Assembly (NCBI GenBank): GCA_040902765.1
Contig: JBBDWO010000025.1
Location: forward strand, 14,132-78,131
Length of the DNA: 64,000 bases
Direction of reading: 5' to 3'
Origin: Acidimicrobiia bacterium
GTDB lineage: Bacteria; Actinomycetota; Acidimicrobiia; Spongiisociales; UBA11373
The notes under the pieces were generated by a model, which searched no databases, was not told the origin of the DNA, and worked only from the letters and a program-made list of their open reading frames with translations. The position numbers and the translations under genes are program-made. Position 1 is the stretch's first letter, and each line of letters begins with the position of its first letter. Below are positions 42,301-55,850 of the stretch, piece after piece.

Positions 42301-42311
42301 GCTGCCGGGTC

Positions 42312-43325
42312 GTGTCGACGCCACTCCTCGAAGTTCGCAACCTGCGCACCTATTTCTCCACGCAGGAGGGGGTGGTGCGAGCCGTCGACGGCATCTCGTT
42401 CCAGATCGGCCATGGTGAACGTTTCGGAGTGGTGGGGGAGTCCGGATCCGGCAAGTCAGTGACCGCGCTCTCGATCATGCGTCTCATCGAGGCTCCGGCG
42501 GGTGAGATCGTCACCGGCGAGATCCTCTTCAACGGTGTGAATCTCCTCACGCTCGACGAGGACGAGATGCGGGAGATCCGGGGAGGCGAGATCGCGATGA
42601 TCTTCCAGGACCCGATGACCGCGCTCAACCCGGTCTACAACGTAGGCAACCAGCTGATGGAGGCGATCATGCTCCATCAGAACGTGGGCAAGAAGGAGGC
42701 CTTCGAGATCGGCGTTTCTGCCCTTGACGACGTCCAGATCCCGAATTCCCGTGAGCGGATGTACGACTACCCGCACCAGCTGTCTGGCGGGATGCGCCAG
42801 CGGGTCATGATCGCCATGGGCCTGTCCTGCAACCCACAACTGCTCATCGCCGACGAGCCGACCACCGCTCTCGATGTGACAACGCAGGCGCAGATCCTCG
42901 ACCTGATGCTCGGCCTGTGTGATGAGCGCAACACCGCCGTCATGCTCATCACCCACGACCTCGGCGTCGTTGCAGGCTTCTGCCAGACGGTCCAGGTCAT
43001 GTACGGAGGCCGCATCGCCGAACGCGGTAAGAACGAGGAGTTGTTCGACGAAACGCTCCACCCGTACACCGCGGGCCTGCTCGGCTCGATGACCCGTCTC
43101 GACGAAGTGCGCGACGAGAGGCTCTACTCGATCCGCGGGGCCCCGCCCTCGCTCATCGACCCGCCCACCGGATGCCGGTTCAAGGCCCGGTGCGACTTCG
43201 CCCAGGACATCTGCAAGACAGACGTCCCGCCAGTGCGTGAGTTCACGCCCGGGCACGTGGCCGCCTGCCACTTCGCCCCCAACCTGGACCTCGCCCGGAT
43301 CAAGCGCGAGCAGGTGGTGTCGTGA
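42312..43325 (+). CDS. ABC transporter ATP-binding protein (DppD/OppD type)
   Basis: Walker A GESGSGKS, signature LSGGMRQR, Walker [13 protein letters not shown], and a C-terminal oligopeptide-ATPase extension. GTG start. Confidence 0.9.
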
Positions 43326-44407
43326 CCACCGAGCAGATGCACGACGGTGTCGGCACAGGCGATCTCGGTCCGGACACGCTCATCCGGGTCAACGACCTCG
43401 TAAAACACTTTCCGATCACCAAGGGCGTCTTCTTTCGCAAGCAGATCGGGGCCGTTCAGGCGGTCTCCGGCATTTCCTTCGAGATCAAGAAGGGCGAGAC
43501 GCTCGGGCTGGTGGGAGAGTCGGGATGCGGCAAGTCCACCACCGCCCGCTGCCTGCTGCGCCTGATCGAACCGACCTCGGGCAAGGTGCTGTACCGGGCC
43601 ATGACGAAGGGCAAGGGGAGGGGCGCCGAGGAGGTCGAGGAGGTCATCGACATCGCCTCCGCCGACAAGGACACGATGCGACGGCTGCGCCGGGACATGC
43701 AGATCGTCTTCCAGGACCCTTACGCTTCGCTCAACCCCCGCATGACGGTCGCCAGCATCATCTCGGAGCCCCTGGTGGTGCACGGCATCGGCAACCACGA
43801 CGATCAGATGGAGAGGGTCAAGGAGCTCCTCAAGGTGGTGGGCCTCAACCCTGAGCACACCAATCGCTACCCGCACGAGTTCTCCGGCGGTCAGCGGCAG
43901 CGTATCGGTGTCGCTCGCGCCCTGGCCCTCAACCCGTCGTTCATGGTTCTCGACGAGCCGGTCTCCGCCCTCGACGTGTCCATTCAGGCCCAGGTGCTCA
44001 ACCTGATGGAGGACCTCCAGGAGGAGTTCGACCTCACCTACCTGTTCATCGCCCACGATCTGTCCGTGGTGCGGCACGTCTCCGACCGGGTGGCGGTCAT
44101 GTACCTGGGGCGGATCGCCGAAATGGCCGACCGTGACACCCTCTACCAGCGTCCCATGCATCCGTACACCCACGCCCTCATGTCGGCGGTGCCGATCCCG
44201 GACCCGGTCAAGGAGCGGACTCGCAAGCGGATCATCCTCGAAGGCGACATCCCGTCACCGATCAACCCGCCCTCCGGATGTCGGTTCCACACCCGGTGCC
44301 CCCGCGCCGAGTTCCCCCTGTGTAGCACCGAGGAGCCGCAGCTCCGGGAGATCGAGCCTGGCCACTACGTGGCCTGCCACTTCCCTGAGATCCAGAGGCT
44401 GGTGTAG
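43322..44407 (+). CDS. ABC transporter ATP-binding protein (DppF/OppF type)
   Basis: Walker [10 protein letters not shown], signature FSGGQRQR and Walker [16 protein letters not shown] start overlaps the upstream stop. Confidence 0.9.
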
Positions 44408-44456
44408 GGGCCTTTCGGGCTTTGCCCTAATGGCGTTACCGGTTGCCCGTTTCCAG

Positions 44457-46034
44457 TCACCCGGGAAGAACCGACGGCTGGGTCCGTTGGAAATACTGGC
44501 GGCGGGGGACTGGGGACTGGCGGCTAATCTCTGCCGCCCACGTCGGAGTGGCGGAACTGGTAGACGCGCTAGGTTGAGGGCCTAGTGGGCGAAAGCTCGT
44601 GGAGGTTCGAGTCCTCTCTCCGACACGCTGAAAACCCGACCCTCCGGTGAGGCCCACCTCCTGGAGGGTCACGTTCATTCGGGGAGCGCCTGACACCTTC
44701 ACCTCCAGATGGTCCGGGAAGATCGCGATCTCATCGAGGAGATCTGAGGCGATGATCCACCGCTCCCGGTCCGTGGCCTCGTTCCAGATCTCCTCGATGT
44801 CGATGTCGGCCAGATGCCGAGCGACATCCTCGAAAGCCTGCGCGATAGCACCGCTCTCCTCGAGCCGCCGCCTCTCTCCGGCCAACTCGCCCTCGAGCCG
44901 CTCCAACTGGGTCGTGAGCTCGCCCTCCTCCTCGGCGAAGAGGTCGGCGCTGACCTGACCTGCGTAGTGCAGCTGGAGCAGTTGACGCCGCCGCTCCCGG
45001 AGCTCACCGACCTGCGTAGCCGCCCGGCCGTCCGCCAGTTTGGCGGCTCGGCCGGACGCCATCCGCATGTGCCGGCGAATCGCATCCTGGAGCGCATCGT
45101 CCCTGCCCACCAGCCTCAATCCGAGGAGCCCGGCCCGCTCGATGCCCTTCACCGACCTCCGCGGCTGATCACACCCCGACCCACGATGAATGCACCGGTA
45201 GAAGCGCCCCCCTTGCCCGTTGCTGTCTACGCCAGCCACTCGCCGACACAACCCGCAGCGCACCACGCCGGAGAGGGGATGACGGCTCTGCCTCTTGCGG
45301 CCCGCAACCCAACCCCGTTGAGCACGCTTCCACTCCTCCTCGGTCACAATCGCTCGATGTCGGCCAGGGAACCAATCGCCCCTCCACACAACCTCGCCTA
45401 GGTACACCCGCGACCCGAGGATCCCTCGCGCCGTCGAATACTTCACACCGGTACGACGCTCGATGTCGGTGTAGGAACACCCCTCCGCACGCAATTGAAA
45501 AATGTGACGCACCACGTCGGCATCGCCGTTGGGCACAAGCTCGCCGTCGATGAGGTCATACCCCGTCTTGGGCCGGTTGATCCACTTGCCCTCCTGCACC
45601 GCTCGAGTCATGCCCATCACCACGTTCTCGGCGAGCTGCTCCCGGTAGAACTGTGCGAACGAACCGAGCACGTTGTAGAACATGCGCCCGGTCGCCGACG
45701 ACAGATCGAGGCGCTCGGTGAACGAGTGCAGCGCGACGTCGGCCTTCCCGAAGGTGTCGGCGAGCAGGATGAGGTCCCCGAGGTTCCGTGACAGCCGATC
45801 GAGCCGCCACACCAAGACGTGTCCGACGCGACCCTCCTCGATCATCGCGAGTACCTGTCGCAGGCCGGGCCGCTCGAGGTTCTTCCCCGACGCGCCCGGG
45901 TCTTCCACCACCGACACCGGTCCCAGGTCGTGGAGCTCGGCGTAGGCACGCAACTTGTCGGCCTGGCCCTGGATCGAGAAGCCCTCGGCCGCCTGCTCCT
46001 CAGTCGACACACGGCAGTAGGCAACGGTCAGCAC
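44457..46034 (-). CDS. large serine recombinase (serine integrase)
   Basis: AGGAGGG RBS and a GTG start at 46034. The catalytic motif VAYCRVSTEEQ is present with the downstream VLVWRLDRLSRN, a recombinase domain, and a zinc-ribbon CGLCRR...YRCIHRGSGC. The ORF has no stop before the tRNA and runs antisense through it, so the true C-terminus is uncertain. Confidence 0.8.
   Translation of the reverse strand: MLTVAYCRVSTEEQAAEGFSIQGQADKLRAYAELHDLGPVSVVEDPGASGKNLERPGLRQVLAMIEEGRVGHVLVWRLDRLSRNLGDLILLADTFGKADVALHSFTERLDLSSATGRMFYNVLGSFAQFYREQLAENVVMGMTRAVQEGKWINRPKTGYDLIDGELVPNGDADVVRHIFQLRAEGCSYTDIERRTGVKYSTARGILGSRVYLGEVVWRGDWFPGRHRAIVTEEEWKRAQRGWVAGRKRQSRHPLSGVVRCGLCRRVAGVDSNGQGGRFYRCIHRGSGCDQPRRSVKGIERAGLLGLRLVGRDDALQDAIRRHMRMASGRAAKLADGRAATQVGELRERRRQLLQLHYAGQVSADLFAEEEGELTTQLERLEGELAGERRRLEESGAIAQAFEDVARHLADIDIEEIWNEATDRERWIIASDLLDEIAIFPDHLEVKVSGAPRMNVTLQEVGLTGGSGFQRVGERTRTSTSFRPLGPQPSASTSSATPTWAAEISRQSPVPRRQYFQRTQPSVLPG
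44542..44625 (+). tRNA. tRNA-Leu (anticodon GAG), class II tRNA. It is the integration target of the downstream element.
   Basis: Acceptor strands GTCGGAG/CTCCGAC are perfectly complementary. D-arm TGGCGGAACTGGTAGACGCG, anticodon stem-loop CTAGG-TTGAGGG-CCTAG, long variable arm, and T-arm GGAGGTTCGAGTCCTCT. Confidence 0.8.
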
Positions 46035-46119
46035 GCGTCGCCCTCCTCTAGCCGCTTGCGCACGATCCGAAGACTCACCGCCACGAGCACCGACGCTACC
46101 CGCTCGAGGTCGCGCTCGC

Positions 46120-47220
46120 TCACAGCCCCCACTCCATCCTCCGGCGCTTCTTCGCCACTCGCTCGGTGAAGGGAATCCCAGTCTCGAGCTCCCACTCATG
46201 CAACACACCGGACGCGCTTCCCAGCGCATCATCAAGCGTCCCAATCTCGCGCAGGGCAGCAAAGCTGGACAGATAGCCGCAGAGCCCCGCGACGATCCGG
46301 CGCTCCGATGCCGCGCGCCGCGCCCCCGACACGCGACCGATGGTGACTGGACGATCCCGCAGCGAAGCCAAGCGAACCTGCTCCCACTCCTCTGCCACCG
46401 GCCACCGTGACCGAGTCGCGTCTCCTGTCGGAGCTCTCATCGACAGCCACTCCGTCCCGTACCCCCACAGCCCACCCGTCTCCCGAAGGAGATCAGCCGG
46501 CGAGTCAACCGAGCATTCCCGCAGCACCGACCGACCGAACTCGAACTCAACACGGACCACCGGATCCCCGTTCCGATAATTCGCCCCCCACCGATCGAAC
46601 CACCAGGTCGTACCGGTCCGGCGAGCCTGCCCCGACTTCTCGTAGATGCGGGCGGAGAGCCCGCCCCCAGACCGACGCCCGATCTGGAACCCAGTCCAGT
46701 GTCCTGCATCCTCATAGGTGGTCAACGTCTTGGCTCGCGTGACGAACCGATTCCGAGTCTCAGCGCTCAGCGTCAGCCCCTGGAAGTCGGCGTACAGGTC
46801 AGCCCTCGACACCGACCAATCGACACTGCACACCGACCCGACCACGTCCGAAAACGCATCCACAGCCGCTTGCGGACCCAGACCGGCCAGCAACTCGGCC
46901 CGAGGCTGCACACGCACCGCAGGCAAGTGCTGACTCGCCGTGAACCCCAGCAACCCATAGCTGTGCGACAACCGATACGCGTACTTCCCCCAGCCATGGC
47001 CGGACAGACCAAACTCGACACCGCCCAACTTGAACGGCACCGGCTCTCCCGCCTCAGCCGCTCGAGCCTTCCCCAGCTCCAGCATCCTGAGCAACGCCAC
47101 AGGCAGATTCCCTCGACCCGATAGGTACAACGCATCGATACCCGAGGCCAGCTCACGCACTCGCACAAGTGCGACTAGCGGAGACTGCAGAACGGCCTGG
47201 GTGGGGGAGTGACCGACCAT
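46120..47220 (-). CDS. replication initiator protein, Rep_trans-like (rolling-circle type) of the integrative element
   Basis: SRADLYADFQG resembles the Rep_trans sRiDla.D active-site region. The gene is co-oriented with and adjacent to the integrase, as in actinomycete integrative elements. Confidence 0.45.
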   Translation of the reverse strand: MVGHSPTQAVLQSPLVALVRVRELASGIDALYLSGRGNLPVALLRMLELGKARAAEAGEPVPFKLGGVEFGLSGHGWGKYAYRLSHSYGLLGFTASQHLPAVRVQPRAELLAGLGPQAAVDAFSDVVGSVCSVDWSVSRADLYADFQGLTLSAETRNRFVTRAKTLTTYEDAGHWTGFQIGRRSGGGLSARIYEKSGQARRTGTTWWFDRWGANYRNGDPVVRVEFEFGRSVLRECSVDSPADLLRETGGLWGYGTEWLSMRAPTGDATRSRWPVAEEWEQVRLASLRDRPVTIGRVSGARRAASERRIVAGLCGYLSSFAALREIGTLDDALGSASGVLHEWELETGIPFTERVAKKRRRMEWGL

Positions 47221-47228
47221 CGAACGAG

Positions 47229-47594
47229 CTACTCCTCCGAGCCCTTGGCTTCGAGGTAGTGCTCCCAGAACGCGACCGGATCGAGCTGCACCCCGACCAC
47301 CTTGTACTCATCCGGATGCATGCCAAAGATCGTCCGGAACCGCTTCAGCTTCCGATAGATCGTCGCCCGATGCCAGCCAGCACGCTCGAGCCCCTCAAAG
47401 CCTCCATACAGATGCCACGACGCCCAGAACCCCAGCATGTCGGCACTCCACCTGGCGGTCAGCCTCGCGACCGCATCCCTACGGATGCCGTCGGTCGCTG
47501 AATACGCCGTGTCCAAGTACCTGTCCCATGCACGCCGCGCCAAACCGCGGCCCTCAGCAGACTCCGACCGCTTCTTCCGAAGATCGTCATTCAT
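47229..47594 (-). CDS. small HTH DNA-binding protein (excisionase/regulator-like)
   Basis: 121 aa with the HTH HRATIYRKLKRF. It lies immediately upstream of rep on the same strand (xis-rep-int-like order). Confidence 0.45.
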   Translation of the reverse strand: MNDDLRKKRSESAEGRGLARRAWDRYLDTAYSATDGIRRDAVARLTARWSADMLGFWASWHLYGGFEGLERAGWHRATIYRKLKRFRTIFGMHPDEYKVVGVQLDPVAFWEHYLEAKGSEE

Positions 47595-47727
47595 AGTCGC
47601 ATCCTAGCGACCACAAACGACAAGGATGTAATCCTGTCGTCAACTTCCTGTACGATGCAGTTTGAGGGTGCTGTGATACAGGACACGCACCCGCTGGCTC
47701 TATTGTCGAATCGAAACGAGGACGCCT

Positions 47728-47946
47728 ATGGACAAGCAGGAGGAAATGGTTCGGTTGCTCGCTCTCCAGTTTCGGGCGATGGTTCCGAACCAGGCCGAAG
47801 CGATCCGACAATTGAGCAAGCTCAAGTTTGGGACGAAGCGGATCGCCGAGCTCTTGGGTACTACAGCGAACACTGTGAACGTGACCCTCCAGCAAGCCAG
47901 GAAGGCCCCCTCGAAGGCAGCAAAGGACACTCGGAAGAATGGCTGA
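47728..47946 (+). CDS. small HTH protein (sigma-70 region-4-like), first gene of the TIR operon
   Basis: 72 aa with KRIAELLGTTANTVNVTLQQARK. Confidence 0.45.
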   Translation: MDKQEEMVRLLALQFRAMVPNQAEAIRQLSKLKFGTKRIAELLGTTANTVNVTLQQARKAPSKAAKDTRKNG

Positions 47947-48238
47947 CGAAGAGATCACCCGACGCCTTGACGCAATCATTGCGATTCTCAAGCTCGCTCA
48001 CAGCGACTCCCTGACTGCCACGCGAGAGTCGTTGCTCCGCAATGAGGTAATCGCAGCCATTCTTGACGTTACTCGTGACGACTTCGTACCGTCCGGTGAT
48101 ATCAAGGCTGCCGTGAGTAAGAGCACGAGTGCGAAGGATAAGACCATCCAGCGCCGCCTGACCGACTTGGTTGCCATGGGGGTGCTCGAGAAGAAGCCGC
48201 ACGCGCGCGCCGCCTATCGGTCAACGGGTGTCGTTTGA
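47939..48238 (+). CDS. small winged-helix protein, second gene of the TIR operon
   Basis: 99 aa with KTIQRRLTDLVAMGVLEKK. The start overlaps the upstream stop (ATGGCTGA). Confidence 0.45.
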   Translation: MADEEITRRLDAIIAILKLAHSDSLTATRESLLRNEVIAAILDVTRDDFVPSGDIKAAVSKSTSAKDKTIQRRLTDLVAMGVLEKKPHARAAYRSTGVV

Positions 48239-48241
48239 CGC

Positions 48242-48676
48242 ATGAGTGAGTCGCTCGACGCCTTTGCTGAACTCCAGGCAATTCGCAGCCGGCTTGATGG
48301 GATCGAGCACCGCCAGGAAATGCTCGTCCGGGCTCAAGCCGAGGAGATCCTGGCGGCGATCTGGACCATCATGGATAACGACCCCATGCTCGCGCCCACG
48401 TACCTGCTCGTTGACGGATCGCGTACGCAGCAACAGATCGCAAAGGAGCTCAGGCAAGGCGGCCATCCCGCGAGCGACGCAAGCATCTCTCGCAAACTCA
48501 AGCGTCTGAGAAATGACTTGGGGTTAGTGGAGCTCCTAGAACATACGGCAGCCGGAAAGGCCTATGGTAAGTCTGCCCTGGATCGGATTCTCAACCTAAC
48601 GCCAAAGGTCGAAAAGCGGGTAGAGGCACGCACGAAGGCGCGTGCCAAACCCAAGAAGACGAAGTCGTCTGGATGA
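48242..48676 (+). CDS. small winged-helix protein, third gene of the TIR operon
   Basis: 144 aa with SRTQQQIAKEL...SISRKLKRLRNDLGLVELL and a Lys-rich tail. Its stop overlaps the TIR gene start (ATGA). Confidence 0.45.
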   Translation: MSESLDAFAELQAIRSRLDGIEHRQEMLVRAQAEEILAAIWTIMDNDPMLAPTYLLVDGSRTQQQIAKELRQGGHPASDASISRKLKRLRNDLGLVELLEHTAAGKAYGKSALDRILNLTPKVEKRVEARTKARAKPKKTKSSG

Positions 48677-49407
48677 CGCAGCCGAGCGAGCCGAGCGAGC
48701 GGGAGCTCCTGAGTCAGCTGAACCACGAGTTCCGGCGCCGCGGGTGGCGCGACAACGAGAACACTGCGCTAGCCATCGTGCGCGCGATCGAGGAGACCCG
48801 AGGCCGCGTCAATGTTGCTCGCTTGGCCAGAGTCCCATCCCGCACGTTCCTAAGTGACAATGCAGCGACCAGAAGGGATGTCAGGCAGGCCGTCAACTCG
48901 GCCATAGGTGAGTCCGATCTCATCTTGATCCGGGCGAAGCTTGGGGAGATCGCGTCTCGGCTTGACGATCTCGATTCCGAGCAGTCGCGGGCAGCGAGGG
49001 AGTTTGATGTCTTCATCTGCCACGCGAGCGAAGACAAGGATGACTTTGTTCGCCCACTCGCCTTGTCCCTGCGCGCCGAGGGGCTCACCGTCTGGTACGA
49101 CGAGTTCGAGCTGCATCTAGGTGACAGCGTGCGGAGGAAGATCGACGCCGGAATTGCCAACAGCCGCTTCGGCGTGATCATTCTCTCGCCGAGCTTCTTC
49201 TCGAAGAGCTGGCCCCAGCACGAGCTCGACGGCCTGGTGACCCGCTCTGTCAGCGGGGTTCAAGTGCTCCTACCGATCTGGCATGGAGTCACACAGGAGG
49301 ACGTGATGGTCTTCAGCCCCTCACTGGCTGACAAGTACGCAGCCCAAAGCGACATGTTCACGGTTGATGAGATTGCTGCTCAGATCGCGTACGTTGTACA
49401 CCGCTAG
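48673..49407 (+). CDS. TIR-domain protein (N-terminal domain of unknown function of about 115 aa plus C-terminal TIR); putative antiphage effector/sensor
   Basis: Canonical bacterial TIR motifs are present (FDVFICHASEDKDDFVRPLALSLRAEGLTVWYDEFELHLGDSVRRKIDAGIANSRFGVIILSPSFFSKSWPQHELDGL...LPIWHGV), including the catalytic Glu in the SPSFF.KSW.Q.EL region. The region has lower GC than the chromosome. Confidence 0.8.
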   Translation: MTQPSEPSERELLSQLNHEFRRRGWRDNENTALAIVRAIEETRGRVNVARLARVPSRTFLSDNAATRRDVRQAVNSAIGESDLILIRAKLGEIASRLDDLDSEQSRAAREFDVFICHASEDKDDFVRPLALSLRAEGLTVWYDEFELHLGDSVRRKIDAGIANSRFGVIILSPSFFSKSWPQHELDGLVTRSVSGVQVLLPIWHGVTQEDVMVFSPSLADKYAAQSDMFTVDEIAAQIAYVVHR

Positions 49408-49629
49408 TCAGGGGGCGTCGGCACGGATGCGCCCGGGTCTCAGACCACGCAATTAACCAGTCGTAGTAGCCGATACCCCACTCTTGCCCGGGGAGCAGAG
49501 GCCCAACCCCCAAAGGCTCGGGAGTGACGTCGGACTCGTCGACCGACGCCTGACTTACAGTCGAGACTCAGATCCCACGGCCTAAGCCTCCATGCGTTGT
49601 CTGCTTGATCACCCGACGGCTCCCCACTC

Positions 49630-52383
49630 CTAAGTCCCCCCCACCATGTCGTTGTAGAGCCCCAGCAGATGACTCACTCGCTCGGCGTCACTCCCAAGTC
49701 GACGCCTGCCCACATATGACCGCTCTACCGCTCGATCCAATGCTGCGTGTGCCTGCACGAGGTCACGCGGCATTGCGAGGTGATCGTACATGGCGGCGAG
49801 CGAAGCATCTGGATACTGCCTCCTCCTAGCCACCACAGCCTCAGCAGCCTCCTCGATACCGCCATCGGGCGATCGCTCCGGCCATGGGAATGGGTTGTAG
49901 ACAGTGCCAGGCGAGAGCTGCAGACGGCTCTCGAGCCGGCCCGACACCGTCCGGAGCCAAGCCATGAACATGCTCGACTGCATCACGCCGAACAGCCACG
50001 AGTCCGCGTCTGGGACGCACCAGGACGGCGCCCGGACGAGTGCTTTGGGGCCACAGATTGCCATCGGGACGATCGGACGGAGTTCGGAGCTCACGTAGGG
50101 AACAAGGAGAAACGAAGCGCCGACGTCGCGTGGCTCCGTGAAGAGGTGAGGCGTCGCCGCAGCCTCTCGAGTCGCGGCTCTGGAACTTGCCTGGCGATAT
50201 TGCTTAACAGCCTCCACACGCTCGCGGATCAGTCGGGAACCGCGAAGCTCGCCCGGGGTCGCGCTCTCGAGCCACAGCGCCCATCGTTTGTGACCATGAA
50301 GGAGCTCCTTACCGCCCAGGTACGGCCGCAGGAAGCGCGCAGCCACAGGATCGCTCAGAGCCGCGCCAACGTTTGTCTCGTCGAACAATAGATGGCCGCC
50401 GTCATTGGCCATGCTGCCGTACTTGGCAGACGGTACGGAGTCCGTAAGGAGGGAACGTGATTGGGCAACGAGGACCGGTTCTCCATCTATCAGGTACGGA
50501 CTTATCTGCTCAGCAGACAGTTCGACGGGATCTCCTCGGTAGTGCGCGTAGTCGAAGATCCGCCTCTCGGTGTCCACAACGCCCATCGAGAATCCGACAA
50601 TGACAACGTGAACTGCCGCGCGACCGCTTGCCTCACTGGTCCATGCGAAGGGACGGTGAGCGAAGTCGATCTTCACCCCAGCTTCAAGAAGCCTGGGCCA
50701 CAGCGCACCGACATTCTGGCCCTGGCTGATCGAATTCGTAGCCACGAACGCGCAGCGTGCGCTTGTGCCCGAGATATATGTCGCTGCCTTCGAAAGCCAG
50801 GCAGCGACATAATCCAGCACACCGTGACCCGGTGCGTTATCGAAGGCGATACGCATGTCCTCCTGCTGTTCCGCGGTCCGGTACTGCCGCCCCCCGAAAG
50901 GGGGATTACCAATCACGTACGACACGTCGGAAGGCGCGACCACCGACGCCCAGTCAAGGCGCAGTGCGTTCCCTATCTTTATTTGGGGTGAAGATGGGAT
51001 CGGAAACCTCACGTAGTGCTGTCCGAACTCCGCGGACACGGCTCGGTTGGCCATATGGTCCATCAGGTAGAGGGCTGTTCGCGCGATTCGCGCCGGAAAC
51101 TCCTCGATCTCGATCCCGTAGAACTGGTCGACGGCTACGCGACAGAGCAGGTCAAGGTCTGACGTCAGCTGACCACCGACCTCCCGGCGCCCTGATCGTC
51201 CGGCAGTCTGGAGCCGTCGCAGGGCCTCTGTCTCTAGTCGGCGAAGCTCCCGGTAGCTCACTACTAGGAAGTTGCCGCACCCGCAGGCTGGATCGAGGAT
51301 CCTAAGAGAGGCGATGCGATCTAGGAATGCCTGAAGCTTCGGCCGACTGCGTGCCTGCTCAAGTTCCTGTTCAAAGTCGTCGAGGAACAGAGGTCGGATT
51401 GTCCTGAGAATGTTCTCCTCTGACGTGTAGTGCGCACCCAGTTGACGTCGCTCGGCAGCTGTCATCACGTTCTGGAACATCGAACCGAAGATGGCAGGGC
51501 TAATAGCGGCCCAGTTGAACCGACAGGCATCCAGGAGTGCGTTGCGGATCTCCTCGGTACAGGAGGGGATAGGTAGCCGAGTCTCGAAAATGTCCCCATT
51601 GATGTACGTGAACCCCGACAAGTCCTCGTCGAGGTTGGGAGATCGCTCTTCCTCAGGAGTGTCAAGCACTTGGAAGATCTCAGCAAGTCGAGAGCCCAGG
51701 TCACTGCCGTCGACTCGTGTCTGATGGACCACGAACGAGTGAAACAGCGCGCGCTCCCAGACCCCCGTGTCATCGGCGAATAGACAGAAGAGAACTCGCG
51801 TGAGCCACTCGCGGGTTGGAGCTTCTTCGTAGCCCGAGTCCGCCAGGGCATCGTGGATGTTGGCCATGAGCTGGGTCGCTGCGAGGTTGACGTCCTCGTC
51901 GTTTGCGAATGCCTCATTCGGGGCAGCGTGCCCCGCCATCCACCAGAACAGATGAACGTGATCAGCCAAGTCCCTGAGAGCGAATGACCCTTGGGTGCCA
52001 TCCACGAGATTGCGCCACCGGAACTTCCGAAAGTCGCACACGACGAGGAGCCAAGGTGACTCGGACTGGTGCAGGGTGGGCAGATAGTCGATCACTTGGT
52101 CCATCGCCTGGTCGAGACTCTGACCTGCTGACTTGTGCTCGACGGCCATGTGGCCCGGGTATAGAAGGTCGATCCAGCCCACGTTTCCCGTGGAAGCGCG
52201 CTCGGCGAGTAGCTCGAACTTGCCAACGAGCCTCCGATCGATGCCGAAGATGGCGAAGAACTCGTTCCAGAACGTCTGCTTCTCGGCGCTCTCCTGGACC
52301 GCGTCCTGCCAGCGACTGGCGAAAGAGGTCGCGCGCTCGCGAACTGTGTGTTTCGCGATGTCAGCGGTCACCGCGTCTGGCAT
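49630..52383 (-). CDS. Type IIL (IIG) restriction-modification enzyme, MmeI family (fused PD-(D/E)XK endonuclease plus N6-adenine methyltransferase plus TRD), 917 aa
   Basis: N-terminal D...EHK nuclease motif (WIDLLYPGHMAVEHKS). MmeI-family blocks are present (LFCLFADDT, NLDEDLSGFTYINGDIF, SPAIFGSMFQNVM, RRQLGAHYTSE, DPACGCGNFLVVSYRELRRLE, QFYGIEIEEFPARIA, VIGNPPFGG, CAFVATNSISQGQNVGALWP, IDFAHRPFAWTSEASGRAAVHVVIVGF, YNPFPWP). The size is nearly identical to MmeI (919 aa). Confidence 0.8.
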   Translation of the reverse strand: MPDAVTADIAKHTVRERATSFASRWQDAVQESAEKQTFWNEFFAIFGIDRRLVGKFELLAERASTGNVGWIDLLYPGHMAVEHKSAGQSLDQAMDQVIDYLPTLHQSESPWLLVVCDFRKFRWRNLVDGTQGSFALRDLADHVHLFWWMAGHAAPNEAFANDEDVNLAATQLMANIHDALADSGYEEAPTREWLTRVLFCLFADDTGVWERALFHSFVVHQTRVDGSDLGSRLAEIFQVLDTPEEERSPNLDEDLSGFTYINGDIFETRLPIPSCTEEIRNALLDACRFNWAAISPAIFGSMFQNVMTAAERRQLGAHYTSEENILRTIRPLFLDDFEQELEQARSRPKLQAFLDRIASLRILDPACGCGNFLVVSYRELRRLETEALRRLQTAGRSGRREVGGQLTSDLDLLCRVAVDQFYGIEIEEFPARIARTALYLMDHMANRAVSAEFGQHYVRFPIPSSPQIKIGNALRLDWASVVAPSDVSYVIGNPPFGGRQYRTAEQQEDMRIAFDNAPGHGVLDYVAAWLSKAATYISGTSARCAFVATNSISQGQNVGALWPRLLEAGVKIDFAHRPFAWTSEASGRAAVHVVIVGFSMGVVDTERRIFDYAHYRGDPVELSAEQISPYLIDGEPVLVAQSRSLLTDSVPSAKYGSMANDGGHLLFDETNVGAALSDPVAARFLRPYLGGKELLHGHKRWALWLESATPGELRGSRLIRERVEAVKQYRQASSRAATREAAATPHLFTEPRDVGASFLLVPYVSSELRPIVPMAICGPKALVRAPSWCVPDADSWLFGVMQSSMFMAWLRTVSGRLESRLQLSPGTVYNPFPWPERSPDGGIEEAAEAVVARRRQYPDASLAAMYDHLAMPRDLVQAHAALDRAVERSYVGRRRLGSDAERVSHLLGLYNDMVGGT

Positions 52384-52460
52384 TGGTCTTCCCTAGGCAG
52401 AACGCTGAGCTCGCAGGGCGCAACTGTTATTACGCTCGTCACTGACGACACCGGCGAAGA

Positions 52461-52645
52461 CTAAGTCCTCCGAGCATTCAGCCGCCACTCTGCAACATGG
52501 CGCAGCGGTCGCTCACGGATGGGAATTGACCACGGCCTAAGCCGCCACTCTGTTTCACAGCCCGAAGGTTCGCTTACCGCCCGCAACCCGACCACGGCTT
52601 GAGCCGCCACTCTGTTTGATCGCCCGAAGGCTCTCCGACACTCGT
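52461..52645. repeat. three tandem degenerate direct repeats (about 60-70 bp units containing AGCCGCCACTCTG...GCCCGAAGG). The last ends in an 11-nt copy of the tRNA-Leu 3' end.
   Basis: The units are at about 52461-52520, 52521-52585 and 52586-52645. They share GACCACGGCYTRAGCCGCCACTCTGTTTSAYMGCCCGAAGGYTC. A related copy lies at 49571-49625 on the other side of the MmeI-like gene. Confidence 0.6.
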
Positions 52646-52908
52646 CTCAACTACACGCGGCCGGGATGCGACGACGACCCGCCCGTCTTGGTGGTAGGTG
52701 ACATCTATCCCCATCTCGGCGTTTACCTTGGCCTTGTCGGTGGGGTCGGCGGCGGCCAGGGTTGCGGTGGTGTCTTGAGGCCGGCGCCGCTAGCTGCTCA
52801 GAGTACGCCAGAGATCGATAGCGTCCGCTCGTTACTGGCACATCCGTCCATTTTGAGTAGGCTGTTGGGCACAAGGTCGCCTGACGCCTGTTCGACGGCA
52901 GGAGGCGC

Positions 52909-53499
52909 GTGACGATCGGAGGTTCTCCCATGGGAGTTCGAAGCAACTGGAGACGCTTCGCCGCCCTTGCATTCGTGGGAGCCTTCTGGGCAGGTTCCAT
53001 GGCGGGCGTCGCGACTGCATCGAACAGGTTCCCGACGAACAACAAGGCAGGTGCCAACTCAACTGTGACGTTCCGGCACCTCAACCTAGCTTCCACCTTT
53101 CATGATGCGGCTCACGACACTGATACGACGGATGTAGAGCCAACCGACGTATACACCCTGATTTACCACGATGGAACACGCGAGGTGACGATTAACGACT
53201 ACGATTACAACAACCCGTACGGCTACGGGTGGTACGAATGCCATGACGAGTATCTGAGTGGCGGACTGCTCATTTGTCTGGACAGTCATGTACACATCGA
53301 CACGTACCTGTATGGCAATACACAGAATCCTCCAGGCACGAGCTATAGCACAACCGAAGCCAGGTCGCTCATGTGCGAGGAGGTAGGCCATGCGATCGGC
53401 CTAGCTCATTCATCCGAAGCGAACTCGTGTATGTCCCAGGACTGGGGCGAAACCGACTGGACTGTTCATGATGACGGTGTTGTCAACTCCATCTACTGA
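52909..53499 (+). CDS. secreted metzincin-like small protein with a degenerate zinc-binding motif
   Basis: Signal peptide (FAALAFVGAFWAGSMAGVATA). The C-terminal CEEVGHAIGLAHS resembles the snapalysin-type HExxHxxGxxH motif, but the first His is replaced (EEVGH). The region is low in GC. Confidence 0.4.
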   Translation: MTIGGSPMGVRSNWRRFAALAFVGAFWAGSMAGVATASNRFPTNNKAGANSTVTFRHLNLASTFHDAAHDTDTTDVEPTDVYTLIYHDGTREVTINDYDYNNPYGYGWYECHDEYLSGGLLICLDSHVHIDTYLYGNTQNPPGTSYSTTEARSLMCEEVGHAIGLAHSSEANSCMSQDWGETDWTVHDDGVVNSIY

Positions 53500-53555
53500 A
53501 ATCGGTACAGCAGCCGCCCTACTGACGTGTCTGTGCTGGAGAGGATCGACATCAC

Positions 53556-54200
53556 ATGCTGACTAAGAGACTGAATGCACGGGTGGTGCGACTCTCTGCC
53601 CTGTGGCTCGTCGGTTTTGCAGCTGTCGGTGTAGCAGGCTTTGCCCTAACCCTGTCAACGTTCACTAACAACAACAGGAGCACCATCCACGATCAAACGG
53701 CGGCTCCCGTGGTTGCACCACATGTGCGGCGCGTAGTTTTGTCTTCCCTCGACGAACTTGTGGCGGCTAGTGACCTCGTTGTTGTAGGCACCGTCGTCGG
53801 AGTGGAGCCGGGCCGGGTAGCGGGAGATCCGGCGGACGGAGAAGCCGGTCAGGTTCAATTTCACGATGCAGTAATCCGTGTTGATGACGTGCTTGCTGGA
53901 TCAACAGCACGGGACAGCATCAGGGTGGAGGTATTCTTCCTTCCGAATTCCCCGCCTGGAAGCATGACAGACATTGCCAGCGCCTGGTGGCGGCGCGGCG
54001 CGAGTTCCGTCTTCTTCGTTCGGTGGGACGCGACTGCGCCAGGTCGGGAAGCCGTTCTTCCCAGTTATGACGGTGTCTACCACTTACCGAGTGGCGTCGA
54101 CGGTCCGGCTCGATCGGCCGGGACCGCACCGATCGCAGGCCTTGAGGGACGAACAGTCGAGGAAATACGGGCTGCGATCAGAGCCCTGGCCAGTGACTGA
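53556..54200 (+). CDS. secreted/membrane-anchored hypothetical protein
   Basis: 214 aa with an N-terminal signal anchor (LSALWLVGFAAVGVAGFALTL), inside the island cargo region. Confidence 0.4.
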   Translation: MLTKRLNARVVRLSALWLVGFAAVGVAGFALTLSTFTNNNRSTIHDQTAAPVVAPHVRRVVLSSLDELVAASDLVVVGTVVGVEPGRVAGDPADGEAGQVQFHDAVIRVDDVLAGSTARDSIRVEVFFLPNSPPGSMTDIASAWWRRGASSVFFVRWDATAPGREAVLPSYDGVYHLPSGVDGPARSAGTAPIAGLEGRTVEEIRAAIRALASD

Positions 54201-54691
54201 TAGAGTGCCTCGATCCTCGACTTGGTAGAAAACCGCCTTCTGCCTCCACAGTGCCCTGTGGGTCGAGGATCTGCTGGTTCTTCGATATCACACAGATACG
54301 TCACGGATTGGGGCTTAACGTCGACAAGCGAGAAGTGCGCCGCTTGGCGCCTGGCAGCAGGCTCGGCGTACCAGATGACCCGGGGCTGTCGTGAGCTGGG
54401 CATCGGTGGTCACGAGGGCGGTGTGAAGAGTCTCGCTACGGCTGATGAAGACGGTGTTTTCGACGGTGAGGGTGCCGCGCAGTTCCGGATGCGGTCTGCC
54501 AGCGGGTTAGGTGGATACCGGGTGATAGCGAAGGCGACCTCCAGGAGAGGCAGTGACGCGCTCACCGATGAATCGACCTGGTTGCGAACGACGTCACCAG
54601 TGCCGGCGCTGGTGTAGTCCCCGGCCCCCGACGCTTCTCCGACACGCGAACTAATCCCGAATCTGTCACACCCGGGCCGTACGGTGTCTGC

Positions 54692-55777
54692 ATGTTGGAT
54701 ACCGCGCTCGTGTCACGAGCCGACCTCCTCGCCGAGATCCACGGATGCGAGCGGGATGTCGCCGCGGCGCGGGCTCGTCAGGTAGTGGTGCTGCGGGAGC
54801 TCATGCGTCGTGGTCAGGAGCCCGGCGCCGCCGAGCTGGCCGCTCTGCTCGATGCCTCGGCCCGCACGGCCCGTGATCTGCTGGAGACGGCGCGCCGGAC
54901 GCCCGAACGCTCGGTGTCGATGGAGCGGCTGTCCGCAGGCGACTCGTCGTTCGATCGCGCTGCTGCCGTCGCCTTCCTCATCGGGGCGGGGGCCGACGAT
55001 GAAACCGTGGCCACAGCCGAATACCGCGACATCGCGGGCGTCGAGCGGCTGCGCGCCCTACAGCGCAAGATCACCCGCCGCAGCGAGCTGGAGGCTCACC
55101 AGCAGCGTTCGGTGCGCTGCTGGCCGTCGCTGGACTCGGCGGTCGGCTTCATTCACGCCGAGCTGACCGGCACCGACTGGCAGCTCGTGACCGGAGCACT
55201 CGACAGCCGCGGCGACCGACTTCCTCGCGACGAGGTGGCCACCGCGGAGCAGCGCCGCGCCGATGCGCTCGTCGCGCTGGCCCACGACTGGCTCGACGGC
55301 CGCCACTGCCCGACCGAGGAGTCCTCGTCGACAGCGATCGTCACCGTTCTCGTCGACCCCGAGCTCGCCTCGGCCACCAACGGCGAGGCCGGTGTGACGA
55401 TCCCCGCCGGTCCCAGGGTCGGGCCATCCACCCTCGACGAGATCATGTGCGGTGGGGCGGTCGAGGTGGTCCTATCAGCCGACTCTGGCGTTCCGCTCGC
55501 GGTCGGCCCGACGACTCGGGTGGTGCCGCCGAAGGTGCGGAGATTCGTTCTCGCTCGTGACGGCGGATGCGTCGTCGAAGGATGCACCAGCCGTTATCGC
55601 CTCGAAGTGCACCACGTGATTCCCCGATCCCAAGGCGGCATCCATGACGCCGACAACCTCGTCACCCTGTGCTGGTATCACCACCACGTCGCCGTGCACG
55701 GCCGGGGTGAGCAGCTCGACCGTCAGAGTCCACCCGCTAGGCGGCGCCTCATCCCCGCCCGGGATCGCGACCCCTGA
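54692..55777 (+). CDS. DUF222-HNH endonuclease family protein (13E12-repeat type)
   Basis: C-terminal HNH motif (CVVEGCTSRYRLEVHHVIPRSQGGIHDADNLVTLCWYHHHVAVH) preceded by an Ala/Arg-rich DUF222-like region, as is typical of actinobacterial HNH proteins. Confidence 0.75.
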   Translation: MLDTALVSRADLLAEIHGCERDVAAARARQVVVLRELMRRGQEPGAAELAALLDASARTARDLLETARRTPERSVSMERLSAGDSSFDRAAAVAFLIGAGADDETVATAEYRDIAGVERLRALQRKITRRSELEAHQQRSVRCWPSLDSAVGFIHAELTGTDWQLVTGALDSRGDRLPRDEVATAEQRRADALVALAHDWLDGRHCPTEESSSTAIVTVLVDPELASATNGEAGVTIPAGPRVGPSTLDEIMCGGAVEVVLSADSGVPLAVGPTTRVVPPKVRRFVLARDGGCVVEGCTSRYRLEVHHVIPRSQGGIHDADNLVTLCWYHHHVAVHGRGEQLDRQSPPARRRLIPARDRDP

Positions 55778-55850
55778 CGAGGGGCGCCGTGGTCGCCTCG
55801 GACCACACCCTCTCTTCCGCTGGCTCGGTCTGCGACCCGCAGACGCGTCC

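Follow-up and report, generated by a model that had tools for sequence, protein, structure and literature searches.

Gene content of the locus

The window (the whole 64,000-nucleotide stretch of DNA analysed here) carries a tRNA-Leu(GAG) gene followed by the features below, given as coordinates, strand and description.

44457..46034, minus: Int, large serine recombinase (LSR), 525 aa as integrated, starting with GTG at 46034
44542..44626, plus: tRNA-Leu(GAG), the integration target (ARAGORN; Rfam RF00005, 51.7 bits)
44616..44626, plus: attL core CTCTCCGACAC, the final 10-11 nt of the tRNA, identical to 52631-52641
46120..47220, minus: Rep, predicted Rep_trans-fold rolling-circle initiator or relaxase, 366 aa, R191-I-Y193-x-K195 conserved
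47229..47594, minus: helical protein with a probable HTH (…HRATIYRKLKRF…), 121 aa
47666..47692, no strand: hairpin between the divergent promoters, GGGTGC-15 nt-GCACCC, non-coding and a conserved block
47728..47946, plus: HTH protein of 72 aa, sigma-70 region 4-like (weak Sigma70_r4_2 match in L001)
47939..49407, plus: cargo 1, three overlapping genes (99, 144 and 244 aa), the last a TIR-domain defence protein
49575..49632, minus: damaged att copy, P arm encoding GEPSGDQADNAWRLRPW, core lacking 2 nt (CTCCCC--ACTC)
49630..52383, minus: cargo 2, MmeI-family type IIG restriction-modification enzyme, 917 aa
52477..52571, minus: tandem P-arm duplicates without core, period of ~62 nt
52574..52641, minus: attR of the 8-kb unit, core 52631-52641 plus P arm, boundary set by L002 and L003
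52642..52789, minus: remnant of a second-type serine recombinase, last ~50 codons (…GIDVTYHQDGRVVVASRPRVVETSVGE), left end of the older element
52909..54200, plus: older-element cargo, a secreted 196-aa protein (weak metalloprotease motif) and a secreted 214-aa protein
54560..54645, minus: attR of the older element, where the island ends on the right; core TTCTCCGACAC plus P arm encoding VGEASGAGDYTSAGTGDV…

Repeats and boundaries of the island

The original prediction described an integrative, composite island at this tRNA gene, bounded by a 12-nt repeat of the tRNA 3' end. This description is largely correct, and its main claims all stood up to testing. Exact copies of TCTCCGACACGC do lie at 44617-44628 and 54636-54647, against a shuffle expectation of 0.03 copies, and two copies occurred in 0 of 100 shuffles. 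The repeat that they have in common is nevertheless 10-11 nt long, as its last GC comes from two different flanks. The 11-nt copy of CTCTCCGACAC predicted at 52631-52641 is genuine, being identical to 44616-44626, while the proposed total of three att-like copies was too low: a fourth, damaged copy lies at 49575-49632, and coreless duplicates occupy 52477-52571. At the right edge, TTCTCCGACAC (54635-54645) matches the core at 10 of 11 positions. When one mismatch was allowed, the 12-mer reached at least three copies in 7 of 100 shuffles. The three-copy pattern alone is not significant, and proof of the repeats therefore rests on the comparison with relatives.

The island was to be checked by searching related genomes for an empty site, and such sites were found. 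In L002 (93.6% nucleotide identity in the flank) and L003, the tRNA-Leu(GAG) gene abuts a homologue of window positions 52642-52790, with no 8-kb unit between them. The L002 alignment jumps between core copies precisely at 44616..44626, and the 11-nt repeat delimits the inserted segment 44627-52641 exactly. On the other side, L117 and L109 contain the tRNA, an int-less 1.37-kb cassette and an att copy, followed by DNA that is 87-91% identical to window 54628-55778; directly after the att copy come the counterpart of 54646 onward and an HNH gene. Translation of the P arm on the left side of the 54635 copy gives the tail of a second-type LSR (14/29 residues matching the P0181 tail, E 4e-5). The relatives thus fix both edges of the island, which extends over 44627-54645 (about 10 kb). 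All of them are metagenome assemblies, where misassembly at a repeat-rich hotspot is possible; four independent contigs agree on both boundaries.

The shuffles with one mismatch would suit a reading in which the repeats are a chance occurrence and the region is merely a variable part of the chromosome in which a recombinase resides. This is hardly credible: the breakpoints against L002, L003, L117 and L109 coincide exactly with the repeats, and conserved P-arm coding sequence flanks the repeats in 30 independent copies, which refutes it. The locus instead carries the signature of an integrative element at a tRNA (Islander/TIGER), namely an intact tRNA, a displaced copy of its 3' end, an adjoining int and an unoccupied site in relatives. 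The tRNA stays intact because an identical 3' end comes from the element. The low GC of the prediction holds for the cargo (0.595-0.611, against 0.648 and 0.678 in the flanks), but not for the int-rep module, which at 0.649 is not below the flanks.

The serine integrase and its split tail

The predicted serine integrase was confirmed. Int combines the Pfam domains Resolvase (1.7e-36), Recombinase (8.4e-8) and Zn_ribbon_recom (2.4e-5, about at the cut-off), the domain set of an LSR, with the motif YCRVSTEEQ, and matches the PHROG_95 integrase over residues 80-522 (2.3e-87). The best NCBIfam match of its catalytic domain is CcrB (9.1e-37), far below the cut-off. Int aligns over its full length with the integrases of L082, L084 and L086. 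To our knowledge, there are hardly any known cases of serine integrases that use tRNA genes.

Residues 1-473 of Int finish in ...FQRVGE at nucleotide 44616, and the final 52 residues are read from the antisense strand of the tRNA and from upstream DNA. That the Int ORF crosses the att core and continues antisense through the tRNA was missed in the first reading and is added here. Family integrases all end in …NVTLxEVGLxxGSxFQRVGE, in which V-G-E corresponds to the tRNA end read antisense; here it is encoded by the attL core. The 11-bp common core, defined for putative att recombination by the junctions with relatives, falls within the int reading frame, and integration therefore shifts the last ~18 codons to the far end of the element. 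The attR P arm there holds the detached int 3' end, PSGDQTEWRLKPWSGCGR plus a stop codon. This relocation of a conserved Int tail by integration is new.

The relocated tail is a conserved D-x-x-W-R-L-K-P-W of ~18-25 residues, and it is conserved as coding sequence. Thirty distinct P arms encode GEPS-x7-W-R-[LI]-x-x-W with codon-position entropies of 0.63, 0.53 and 0.88, indels keep the frame, and six different codons are used for the invariant Arg. At least seven called proteins have the Int C-terminus contiguous with the conserved tail; those whose context is visible belong to chromosomal arrays that are tandem or decayed (L088, L093). Integrated Int, with 52 foreign residues replacing its native tail, may be impaired, and any function of the tail swap is presumptive.

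Layers of the island

The island consists of three layers, probably laid down by repeated site-specific integration of small elements into the tRNA-Leu(GAG) 3' end. The first is an intact element of ~5 kb with the LSR, the Rep_trans-fold initiator, the HTH proteins and the TIR operon. The second is a fused MmeI cassette beyond the damaged att copy at 49575-49632, and the third is a 2-kb remnant of an older element with a second LSR type. Of the two tandem elements originally proposed, the second is supported by the LSR remnant at 52642-52789 and the matching tail left of 54635, but the first is itself two fused units.

The tRNA-proximal unit (44627-52641, 8,015 bp) comprises an apparently intact operon of the 121-aa, Rep and LSR genes and a divergent, HTH-led operon. 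Annotated genes occupy its full length, and there is no further recombinase in it. The damaged att copy marks the former right end of the int-rep-TIR unit. The MmeI cassette is best explained as a formerly separate unit, now fused with the int-rep-TIR unit through damage to the att copy that separated the two. One of the coreless P-arm duplicates (52528-52571) still encodes EPSGCETEWRLRPW. At E ≤ 0.001, the representative library yields 91 relatives for the second-type LSR remnant. The 8-kb unit adjoins this remnant of another element and lacks a pristine right half-site; as far as we know, well-studied large serine recombinases would not be expected to accept a remnant in its place.

A module shared among Acidimicrobiia

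The module of ~122-aa, ~365-aa and LSR genes recurs in L082-L092. It is located at tRNA-Leu(GAG) in L084, L086, L088, L089/90 and L091/92, in at least two chromosomal neighbourhoods, and in L082 it adjoins a degenerate tRNA-like fragment, not an intact tRNA. The cargo at these sites differs and includes HEPN, SIR2/DUF4917, AbiJ, UvrD and others. Loci contain three (L084), four (L086) or two (L088) att copies, and L117 has one gene between att copies without int. Decay is seen in the frameshifted int of L003, the int fragments of L093 and the int-less cassettes of L117. Also new is the repeated occurrence of one int-rep module at tRNA-Leu(GAG) across several contigs of Acidimicrobiia, with cargo that differs each time.

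Putative replication module

Rep gave no match to Pfam, NCBIfam or PHROG profiles. Among its relatives, 6 of 51 sequences hit Rep_trans (PF02486) below threshold, scoring 11-13 bits where the cut-off is 29.6, with a best E of 0.0068. Its predicted structure (AF2, pLDDT 92) matches 4cij in Foldseek (E 4.5e-11, probability 1.0) and has the Rep_trans fold, a pseudo-twofold TBP-like sheet (cf. RepSTK1, RepDE). The Rep_trans initiator named in the original prediction is thus correct by fold, although sequence profiles do not detect it. Fold and weak sequence signals together point to membership of Rep_trans. Residues R191, Y193, K195, D141, D145 and E225, which include candidates for the catalytic tyrosine and the metal-binding acids of an origin-nicking enzyme, are invariant in 51/51 sequences, and we take the R-I-Y-x-K motif to resemble the active-site motif of pT181 RepC/RepD.

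Alternatively, Rep could mainly be a MOB_T-type relaxase and the element an integrative mobilizable element (IME) that borrows the conjugation pore of another and does not replicate itself; we regard this as possible, if on balance doubtful. Rep_trans proteins act as relaxases in Tn916, ICEBs1, ICESt3 and streptococcal IMEs (PMC5704250, PMC7563843), the Rep family member P0054 has an N-terminal HTH_17 domain like MOB_T relaxases, and the island lacks genes for partition or copy control. However, a conjugation system is neither known nor seen here, in Acidimicrobiia hosts, and a Rep homologue is the sole large ORF on the 1.7-kb plasmid pTHEBA.01, where it must therefore act in replication. The two roles are not mutually exclusive.

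The 121-aa gene leads the 121aa-rep-int operon and adjoins rep, an arrangement conserved in L082-L090. None of its 54 homologues is annotated, no family matches it, and a fold search with its AF2 model (pLDDT 82) returned no match. The small minus-strand HTH protein of the prediction therefore stands as a helical protein with a probable HTH, but not as a member of any family or fold. It could be an accessory or directionality factor, as the xis-rep-int-like order of the prediction would have it. The hairpin block is kept in the window, L082, L084/85 and L088 and is also matched in L102 and L104; it is a candidate replication origin/nick site or operator.

Cargo

The 72-aa HTH gene is divergent from the rep operon and first in the TIR operon, similar small HTH genes occur in L084 and L085, and its product is likely a regulator. 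The TIR operon and MmeI-like enzyme were both predicted correctly. The TIR protein matches TIR_2 (1.3e-20), PADLOC PDC-S66 (4.2e-66), ThsB (2.8e-38) and PHROGs 9211 and 15646. We rejected Thoeris (TIR plus a ThsA-type effector) as its identity: a ThsA-like partner is absent, and the adjacent genes encode small HTH-like proteins. The restriction-modification enzyme has the full set of five Pfam MmeI domains above cut-off, and PADLOC REase_MTase_IIG covers residues 11-914 (3.9e-302), which places it in the MmeI family. The secreted 196-aa protein, thought to be metzincin-like, has only a weak match to Peptidase_M10 (2.8e-4), below the cut-off; the GC content of this older-element cargo is 0.595.

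Int and the TIR protein both match PHROGs, in the case of Int a phage integrase, and defence cargo is typical for prophages and satellites, as it would be if the island were a degraded prophage or phage satellite at a tRNA. We think this very improbable, since capsid, terminase, portal, tail and lysis genes are absent and the other ORFs have no PHROG match. Rep matched none of 50,697 phage records, an IMG/VR scan was empty, and the conserved core of eight relatives is limited to int-rep-HTH.

Proposed cycle

Judging from the junctions, Int would cross over within the 11-bp core common to the tRNA end and the element, with the tRNA always regenerated. Excision would yield an 8-kb circle in which the int frame regains its own last 18 codons (…VGE|PSGDQTEWRLKPWSGCGR), and the attP junction expected in this circle is …CCCGAAGGCTCTCCGACACGCTGAAAACC…. 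Nicking of an origin by the Rep_trans-like protein, perhaps at the hairpin 47666-47692, would follow and lead to rolling-circle replication or transfer of the circle, which would re-integrate at some tRNA-Leu(GAG) gene. The defence genes would be cargo paying the host. Exact-junction scans found no circular contig or clean attP junction, and neither of the two Int forms turned up in exact look-ups, so that Int activity and current mobility are presumptive. The data do establish the boundaries, the layering, the family, the fold of Rep and the coding conservation of the tail; excision and replication at the present day, the nick site and the role of the 121-aa protein are presumed.

The same LSR could also have built a stack that is now fixed, with Int inactive without its native tail and excision impossible except in trans by a related incoming element. 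The results of the junction scans fit this reading, as do the frequent decay in the family (L003, L093, L117) and the damaged internal att copy. Archaeal integrases that split their own gene, moreover, require an intact copy in trans (PMC8371274). We nevertheless judge such a fossil island unlikely. Neither truncation nor frameshift affects Int residues 1-473, Rep or the 121-aa gene, which retain all family-invariant residues, and the outer att cores match perfectly (11/11). The exchanged tail is a short stretch beyond the last folded domain, so no catalytic part is swapped. Finally, the absence of the 8-kb unit from L002 at its flank identity implies recent gain or loss. We favour an element that may still move.

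Comparison with known systems

The island shares the rep-(xis)-int-attP order at tRNA genes with actinomycete-type AICEs (pSAM2-type), but it has a serine rather than a tyrosine recombinase, its Rep belongs to a different family, and it has no TraB/FtsK gene. As predicted, there is no conjugation gene, for which the annotated genes leave no space; the genes between the att sites are all accounted for and none has a TraB/FtsK domain, so we rejected AICE identity.

Staphylococcal SCC (CcrA/B/C at the rlmH 3' end) resembles the island in its serine recombinase, a conserved target gene that is entered at its 3' end and kept functional, short direct repeats for each unit and tandem stacks that include recombinase-less pseudo-elements. 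SCC carries a Cch/primase module, in place of which a Rep_trans initiator is found here. The island further differs in its tRNA target, single recombinase, att core within the recombinase ORF, and cargo for defence, not resistance. As in the accretion of ICEs with cis-mobilizable elements, tandem accretion at a single att site has left att copies inside the stack and units without a recombinase.

Streptococcal IMEs such as IMESag-rpsI are small, have a Rep_trans-HTH-integrase module and variable cargo, and lack transfer pore genes (PMC5704250). Together with an element on Bacillus cereus plasmid NZ_CP085507, they share with our element the small size, missing pore genes, divergent HTH, variable cargo and the order of Rep_trans, small protein and integrase adjoining att. 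Both, in contrast, use tyrosine integrases at 3' gene ends in Firmicutes, whereas here an LSR is present in Acidimicrobiia, with a Rep too divergent for the Pfam model.

A crossover inside the integrase ORF at a tRNA target, by which integration alters the gene product, has parallels in Mx8 IntP, whose gene spans attP according to the account of Tojo 1996 in PMC4383910, and in the SSV-type 'suicidal' integrases, whose gene splitting is described as exclusive to archaea (PMC8371274). Both are tyrosine recombinases, and SSV splitting destroys the enzyme, whereas here the exchange is limited to a conserved tail of ~18-25 residues of a bacterial LSR. In the integration-dependent immunity of mycobacteriophages, which are likewise actinobacterial, a regulatory gene contains attP in its 3' end, with a tRNA as the site of integration (Broussard 2013, as summarized in PMC8092301). 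Free and integrated forms differ in their C-termini there as well, and in that summary the difference is a state switch; the split gene is a repressor with an ssrA-like degradation tag, alongside a tyrosine integrase, while in our element the split gene is the serine integrase itself.

Insertion at tRNA-Leu(GAG)

The island begins at the 3' end of a tRNA gene:

44542-44626, plus strand, tRNA-Leu(GAG), identified by ARAGORN and Rfam

The 12-mer TCTCCGACACGC from this 3' end has exactly two copies, at 44617 and 54636 (0.03 expected by shuffling), and the 11-nt CTCTCCGACAC at 52631-52641 is the same sequence as 44616-44626. A three-copy pattern with one mismatch was reached in 7 of 100 shuffles and is not significant alone, so decisive evidence was needed from related genomes. 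All relatives compared were metagenome assemblies. One genome per species was scanned using the upstream OppF-like protein as the query, and this placed the host among the Acidimicrobiia. The closest contig, L002, was 93.6% identical at the nucleotide level across 3.5 kb. Window 41074-44626 aligned to L002 1-3545 and window 52631-52761 to L002 3535-3665, and the two alignments share exactly the 11-nt core; a second contig, L003, is arranged likewise. Therefore, 44627-52641 (8,015 bp) was either inserted or deleted cleanly, with the 11-nt repeat at its edges, and in these contigs the tRNA site lacks the unit, as in the empty-site comparison that the original prediction had proposed. The junctions have an 11-bp core in common, and insertion into the tRNA 3' end is site-specific.

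The right edge was sought in a metagenome scan with a pattern of the core plus the P arm, the element sequence beside it, which returned contigs L117 and L109. Both contain the same tRNA (97% identity), followed by just 1.37 kb with one 368-aa gene and without int or rep, then an att copy and DNA 87-91% identical to window 54628-55778. The right flank shared by the window and both contigs consists of GCGAA(C/T)T(A/C)ATCCCGAATCTGTCACACCCGG and a DUF222-HNH gene. Together, the left and right junctions place the island at 44627-54645. All three att copies of the original prediction are real, as judged from these junctions in relatives.

Three other contigs (L004, L006 and L007) had clean tRNA ends, and with no usable downstream synteny they were of no use in placing the right boundary. 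In exact look-ups, the protein of the left flank matched nothing, and that of the right flank matched only the window's own Logan contig. Contigs often end at the tRNA-int junction (L001, L083, L085, L087, L002 and L005), which fits site heterogeneity in the population and proves nothing. Dyad symmetry was seen by eye in the pristine attB (GTTCGAGT…ACGCGAAC), with nothing consistent in attP, and was not relied on.

The smallest occupant of the tRNA-Leu site lies at L117 2070-3445, and likewise but reversed in L109. Its 368-aa gene, with no assigned function, lies between the tRNA end and the att copy with no integrase or rep, and this one-gene cassette looks as though it could be mobilised in trans. 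The DUF222-HNH endonuclease gene (window 54692-55777), 45 nt past the island edge, belongs to the family of the mycobacterial REP13E12 repeats. L117 and L109 both keep it beside the att site, and L084 has a 50%-identical copy 1.4 kb past the last att copy.

The integrase reading frame crosses the attachment site

The large serine recombinase gene (int) lies on the minus strand and adjoins the tRNA. In the window, its ORF has no stop before the tRNA and reads …NVTLQEVGLTGGSGFQRVGE, followed by 52 more residues of antisense tRNA and beyond. All related ints end alike, V-G-E being the antisense of CTCTCCGAC. At the far end of the element, the P arm codes a protein tail: reading from core to P arm gives a conserved peptide, which in the window is PSGDQTEWRLKPWSGCGR and a stop. 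Thirty distinct P arms, drawn from the window, family loci and metagenome matches, all code GEPS-x7-W-R-[LI]-x-x-W with a stop 3-10 codons further. Entropy at the three codon positions was 0.63, 0.53 and 0.88, the third position being the most variable. The invariant Arg is encoded by CGG, AGG, AGA, CGA, CGC and CGT, Leu, Lys and Pro codons vary synonymously, and length differences are multiples of three. These sequence patterns point to selection on the translated tail and not on the DNA site only.

The Int C-terminus was contiguous with the tail in at least seven independently called proteins (P0122, P0123, P0133, P0135, P0136, P0159 and P0163); the contexts that could be inspected were tandem or decayed arrays (L088 and L093), not circles. 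A search with the Int C-terminal fragment returned short ORFs only, and was used for tails, being uninformative on full-length proteins. Since the core lies inside the int frame, the conserved C-terminal peptide would be made only by the excised or tandem form. It is possible, although short of probable, that a clade of serine integrases uses tRNA 3' ends as attB with the core in its own frame, the D-x-x-W-R-[LI]-x-x-W peptide coming only from the excised or tandem form and the integrated copy having an arbitrary tRNA-antisense tail. On integration, int splits its own gene and loses a tail whose protein sequence is conserved, which points to a simple state switch, undescribed for serine integrases. 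If the tail governs stability, partner binding or directionality, it would be a built-in integration-state sensor.

Sister ints (~50% identity in the C-terminal part) end in …GWQFRGVGGG(I/T)RT… (P0141-P0158, P0162, P0164, P0166 and P0168). This ending looks like the antisense of another tRNA 3' end, and suggests that tRNA genes are the targets of the whole clade, in an identical frame relationship.

The int 3' end and a 72-aa HTH gene each hold one arm of a perfect 17-nt inverted repeat (44661-44677 and 47876-47892), and both arms code N-V-T-L-Q. Inversion across it would exchange the C-termini of these two genes. We set it aside as a recombination or inversion site since it is absent from all relatives; it could be chance (roughly 0.01-0.03 for the region) or a conversion patch.

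The island is layered

The island was layered through repeated insertion. Right of the middle att copy, the minus strand of 52642-52789 codes …GIDVTYHQDGRVVVASRPRVVETSVGE, the C-terminal end of a large serine recombinase of a second type, which also reads through into the tRNA in the same frame. Frameshifted pieces of this second type (recombinase and zinc-ribbon domains) are present in L003. When 1.84 billion representatives were searched in full with HMMER, 91 relatives were found, for the most part short remnant ORFs. One relative, P0181, runs beyond VGE as ASGLADYTGRPTGGDV. The translation left of the 54635 copy is VGEASGAGDYTSAGTGDV, with 14 identities over 29 residues to the P0181 tail (E 4e-5). 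With the second-type C-terminus at its left and a matching tail at its right, 52642-54645 is what is left of a wrecked older element, whose two ends can still be recognised; this upholds the tandem insertion proposed earlier.

The 8-kb unit contains further att-like sequences:

49575-49632, damaged att copy, just right of the MmeI stop codon
52477-52571, two P-arm duplicates without core

The P arm of the damaged copy is ~80% identical to 52590-52630, and its core lacks two bases. These internal copies indicate that an int-rep-TIR element and an MmeI cassette have fused into the 8-kb unit. The first of the two predicted tandem elements is therefore itself made of two units, and could now move only in one piece.

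Gene content of the island

The genes were as originally described, apart from weaker evidence for the metalloprotease: of two secreted proteins, one has a metalloprotease motif, only sub-threshold, where a secreted metzincin-like protein had been predicted. The int-rep module is intact. Int has Resolvase, Recombinase and Zn ribbon domains and a PHROG integrase match (2.3e-87), and the 366-aa and 121-aa ORFs had no family match in Pfam, NCBIfam or PHROG. A plus-strand operon of four genes ends with a TIR protein, and the MmeI-type enzyme is complete (PADLOC 3.9e-302). GC was 0.595-0.611 in the cargo, 0.648 and 0.678 in the flanks and 0.649 in the int-rep module. The predicted low GC therefore applies to the cargo, but the int-rep module is not below the flanks.

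In the TIR operon, 99- and 144-aa proteins (window 47939-48676), whose sole family signal was a faint winged-helix match, are translationally coupled upstream of the TIR gene. With the 72-aa HTH gene they form an unclassified four-gene TIR operon, in which PADLOC called the TIR protein alone, as PDC-S66. A 30-34-aa ORF was called repeatedly across the rep end and int start (window about 46030-46130; L083 11095-11187; also L084, L085, L087, L088 and L092). This ORF may encode a genuine coupling peptide or be an overlap artefact.

A Rep_trans-like protein and upstream hairpins

We modelled the 366-aa protein (Rep) with AlphaFold2 from a 51-sequence alignment (pLDDT 92). Its top Foldseek matches in the PDB were the rolling-circle initiators RepSTK1 (4cij, E 4.5e-11) and RepDE (4cwe). 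Pfam Rep_trans matched 6 of the 51 relatives weakly, over a region with an invariant R-I-Y-x-K. In tblastn, Rep was similar to a 'replication initiation factor' of Bacillus cereus-group megaplasmids (E 7e-24), which is part of an HTH / Rep / small HTH / tyrosine integrase module, and to the sole large ORF in pTHEBA.01, a 1,724-bp plasmid of Mesotoga prima (E 4e-15). At the sequence level, Rep had no links to solved structures, only spurious OspA matches. The predicted 'Rep_trans-like' initiator is thus backed by fold and distant homology, but falls below the curated family threshold. A Rep_trans-like annotation can now replace the label 'hypothetical', which this family bears throughout.

The 121-aa protein is helical and probably contains an HTH. 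It had no PADLOC match either, and the best fold match to its confident model was only E 2.4. Without a family or fold match, the 'xis' role suggested for it is a guess. A GGGTGC-15 nt-GCACCC hairpin (47666-47692) in the conserved non-coding block upstream of its gene is common to the window, L082, L084/85, L088, L102 and L104, and is a candidate origin or operator.

Another short hairpin, on the minus strand within 47595-47727, overlaps the start codon of the 121-aa gene and its ribosome-binding region. The hairpin stem has paired substitutions, being GTCGC/GCGAC in the window and L082, and CTGCC/GGCAG or CTGTC/GGCAG in L084, L088 and L090. This hairpin may serve in translational control or as an operator.

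Related elements carry different cargo

At least 229 clusters, none of them annotated, are homologous to the 366-aa protein. Context look-ups revealed a conserved module of a ~122-aa protein, a ~365-aa protein, a tiny ORF and the serine recombinase. The recombinase gene abuts tRNA-Leu(GAG), as called by ARAGORN, in L084, L086, L088, L089/90 and L091/92, at sites beside the opp operon or beside secG; in L082, its neighbour is a degenerate tRNA-like fragment. Cargo was different at every locus and included HEPN_Swt1, DUF4917/SIR2, a STAND-like cyclase, AbiJ, UvrD and IS. There were three att copies in L084, four in L086 and two in L088. In L088 (ENA k141_4084406, seen at both contig ends), another int 3' end with slight divergence comes after the distal att copy, which identifies this locus as a tandem of two full elements. 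Among its cargo are an IS3-type transposase and a UvrD-like helicase.

A proposed cycle of excision and re-integration

The predicted attP is …GATCGCCCGAAGG-CTCTCCGACAC-GCTGAAAACCCGACC…. Its exact junction, GAAGGCTCTCCGACACGCTGAAA, had no matches in IMG/VR and JGI metagenomes, and exact cluster look-ups matched neither the integrated nor the circular-form Int; no circular form was detected in these scans and look-ups. We propose that the serine recombinase would cut out the 8-kb unit as a circle, restoring its own reading frame, and that the Rep_trans-like protein would replicate or mobilise the circle from a nearby origin before the element goes back into tRNA-Leu(GAG). Older units would shed the recombinase and persist as cis-mobilisable cassettes. 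The 8-kb unit sits between the tRNA and the int remnant of another element and not beside the pristine right flank, so the enzyme appears to rely mainly on the tRNA half-site and seems to depend little on the right half-site.

Comparison with known systems

The element is small, integrative, defence-carrying and probably replicative or mobilisable. It is unusual in that a serine integrase is paired with a tRNA target and that the integrase tail is coded across attP. The Islander paper knew only tyrosine integrases to target tRNA genes (PMC4383910). In the TIGER survey, 14 of 297 serine-integrase islands were at t(m)RNA genes, a finding described there as unreported and still to be proved by experiment (PMC7192596). 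Serine-recombinase IMEs have been described as gene-disrupting (PMC5704250), and an extensive survey of serine recombinases leaves tRNA targets unmentioned (PMC10083194). The family described here has base-pair-resolved junctions at tRNA-Leu(GAG) in occupied, differently occupied and nearly empty sites, and is a concrete test system for the recognition of a tRNA gene by a serine integrase. Serine integrases with tRNA targets and short att sites would be useful for genome engineering. The locus is also a defence-gene hotspot of a poorly studied, uncultured actinobacterial class.

The tandem stacking of the island is similar to SCC composite islands and to ICE/CIME accretion. Self-splitting integrases are described as exclusively archaeal and are tyrosine enzymes (PMC8371274), and the integrases of Mx8 and SSV are described as reaching across attP (PMC4383910). 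In the integration-dependent immunity described for mycobacteriophages, attP lies in the repressor gene, whose C-terminus is altered on integration (PMC8092301); this is the closest conceptual parallel to the int tail swap. A state-sensing int would resemble both Mx8 IntP/IntX and integration-dependent immunity, but in another recombinase superfamily.
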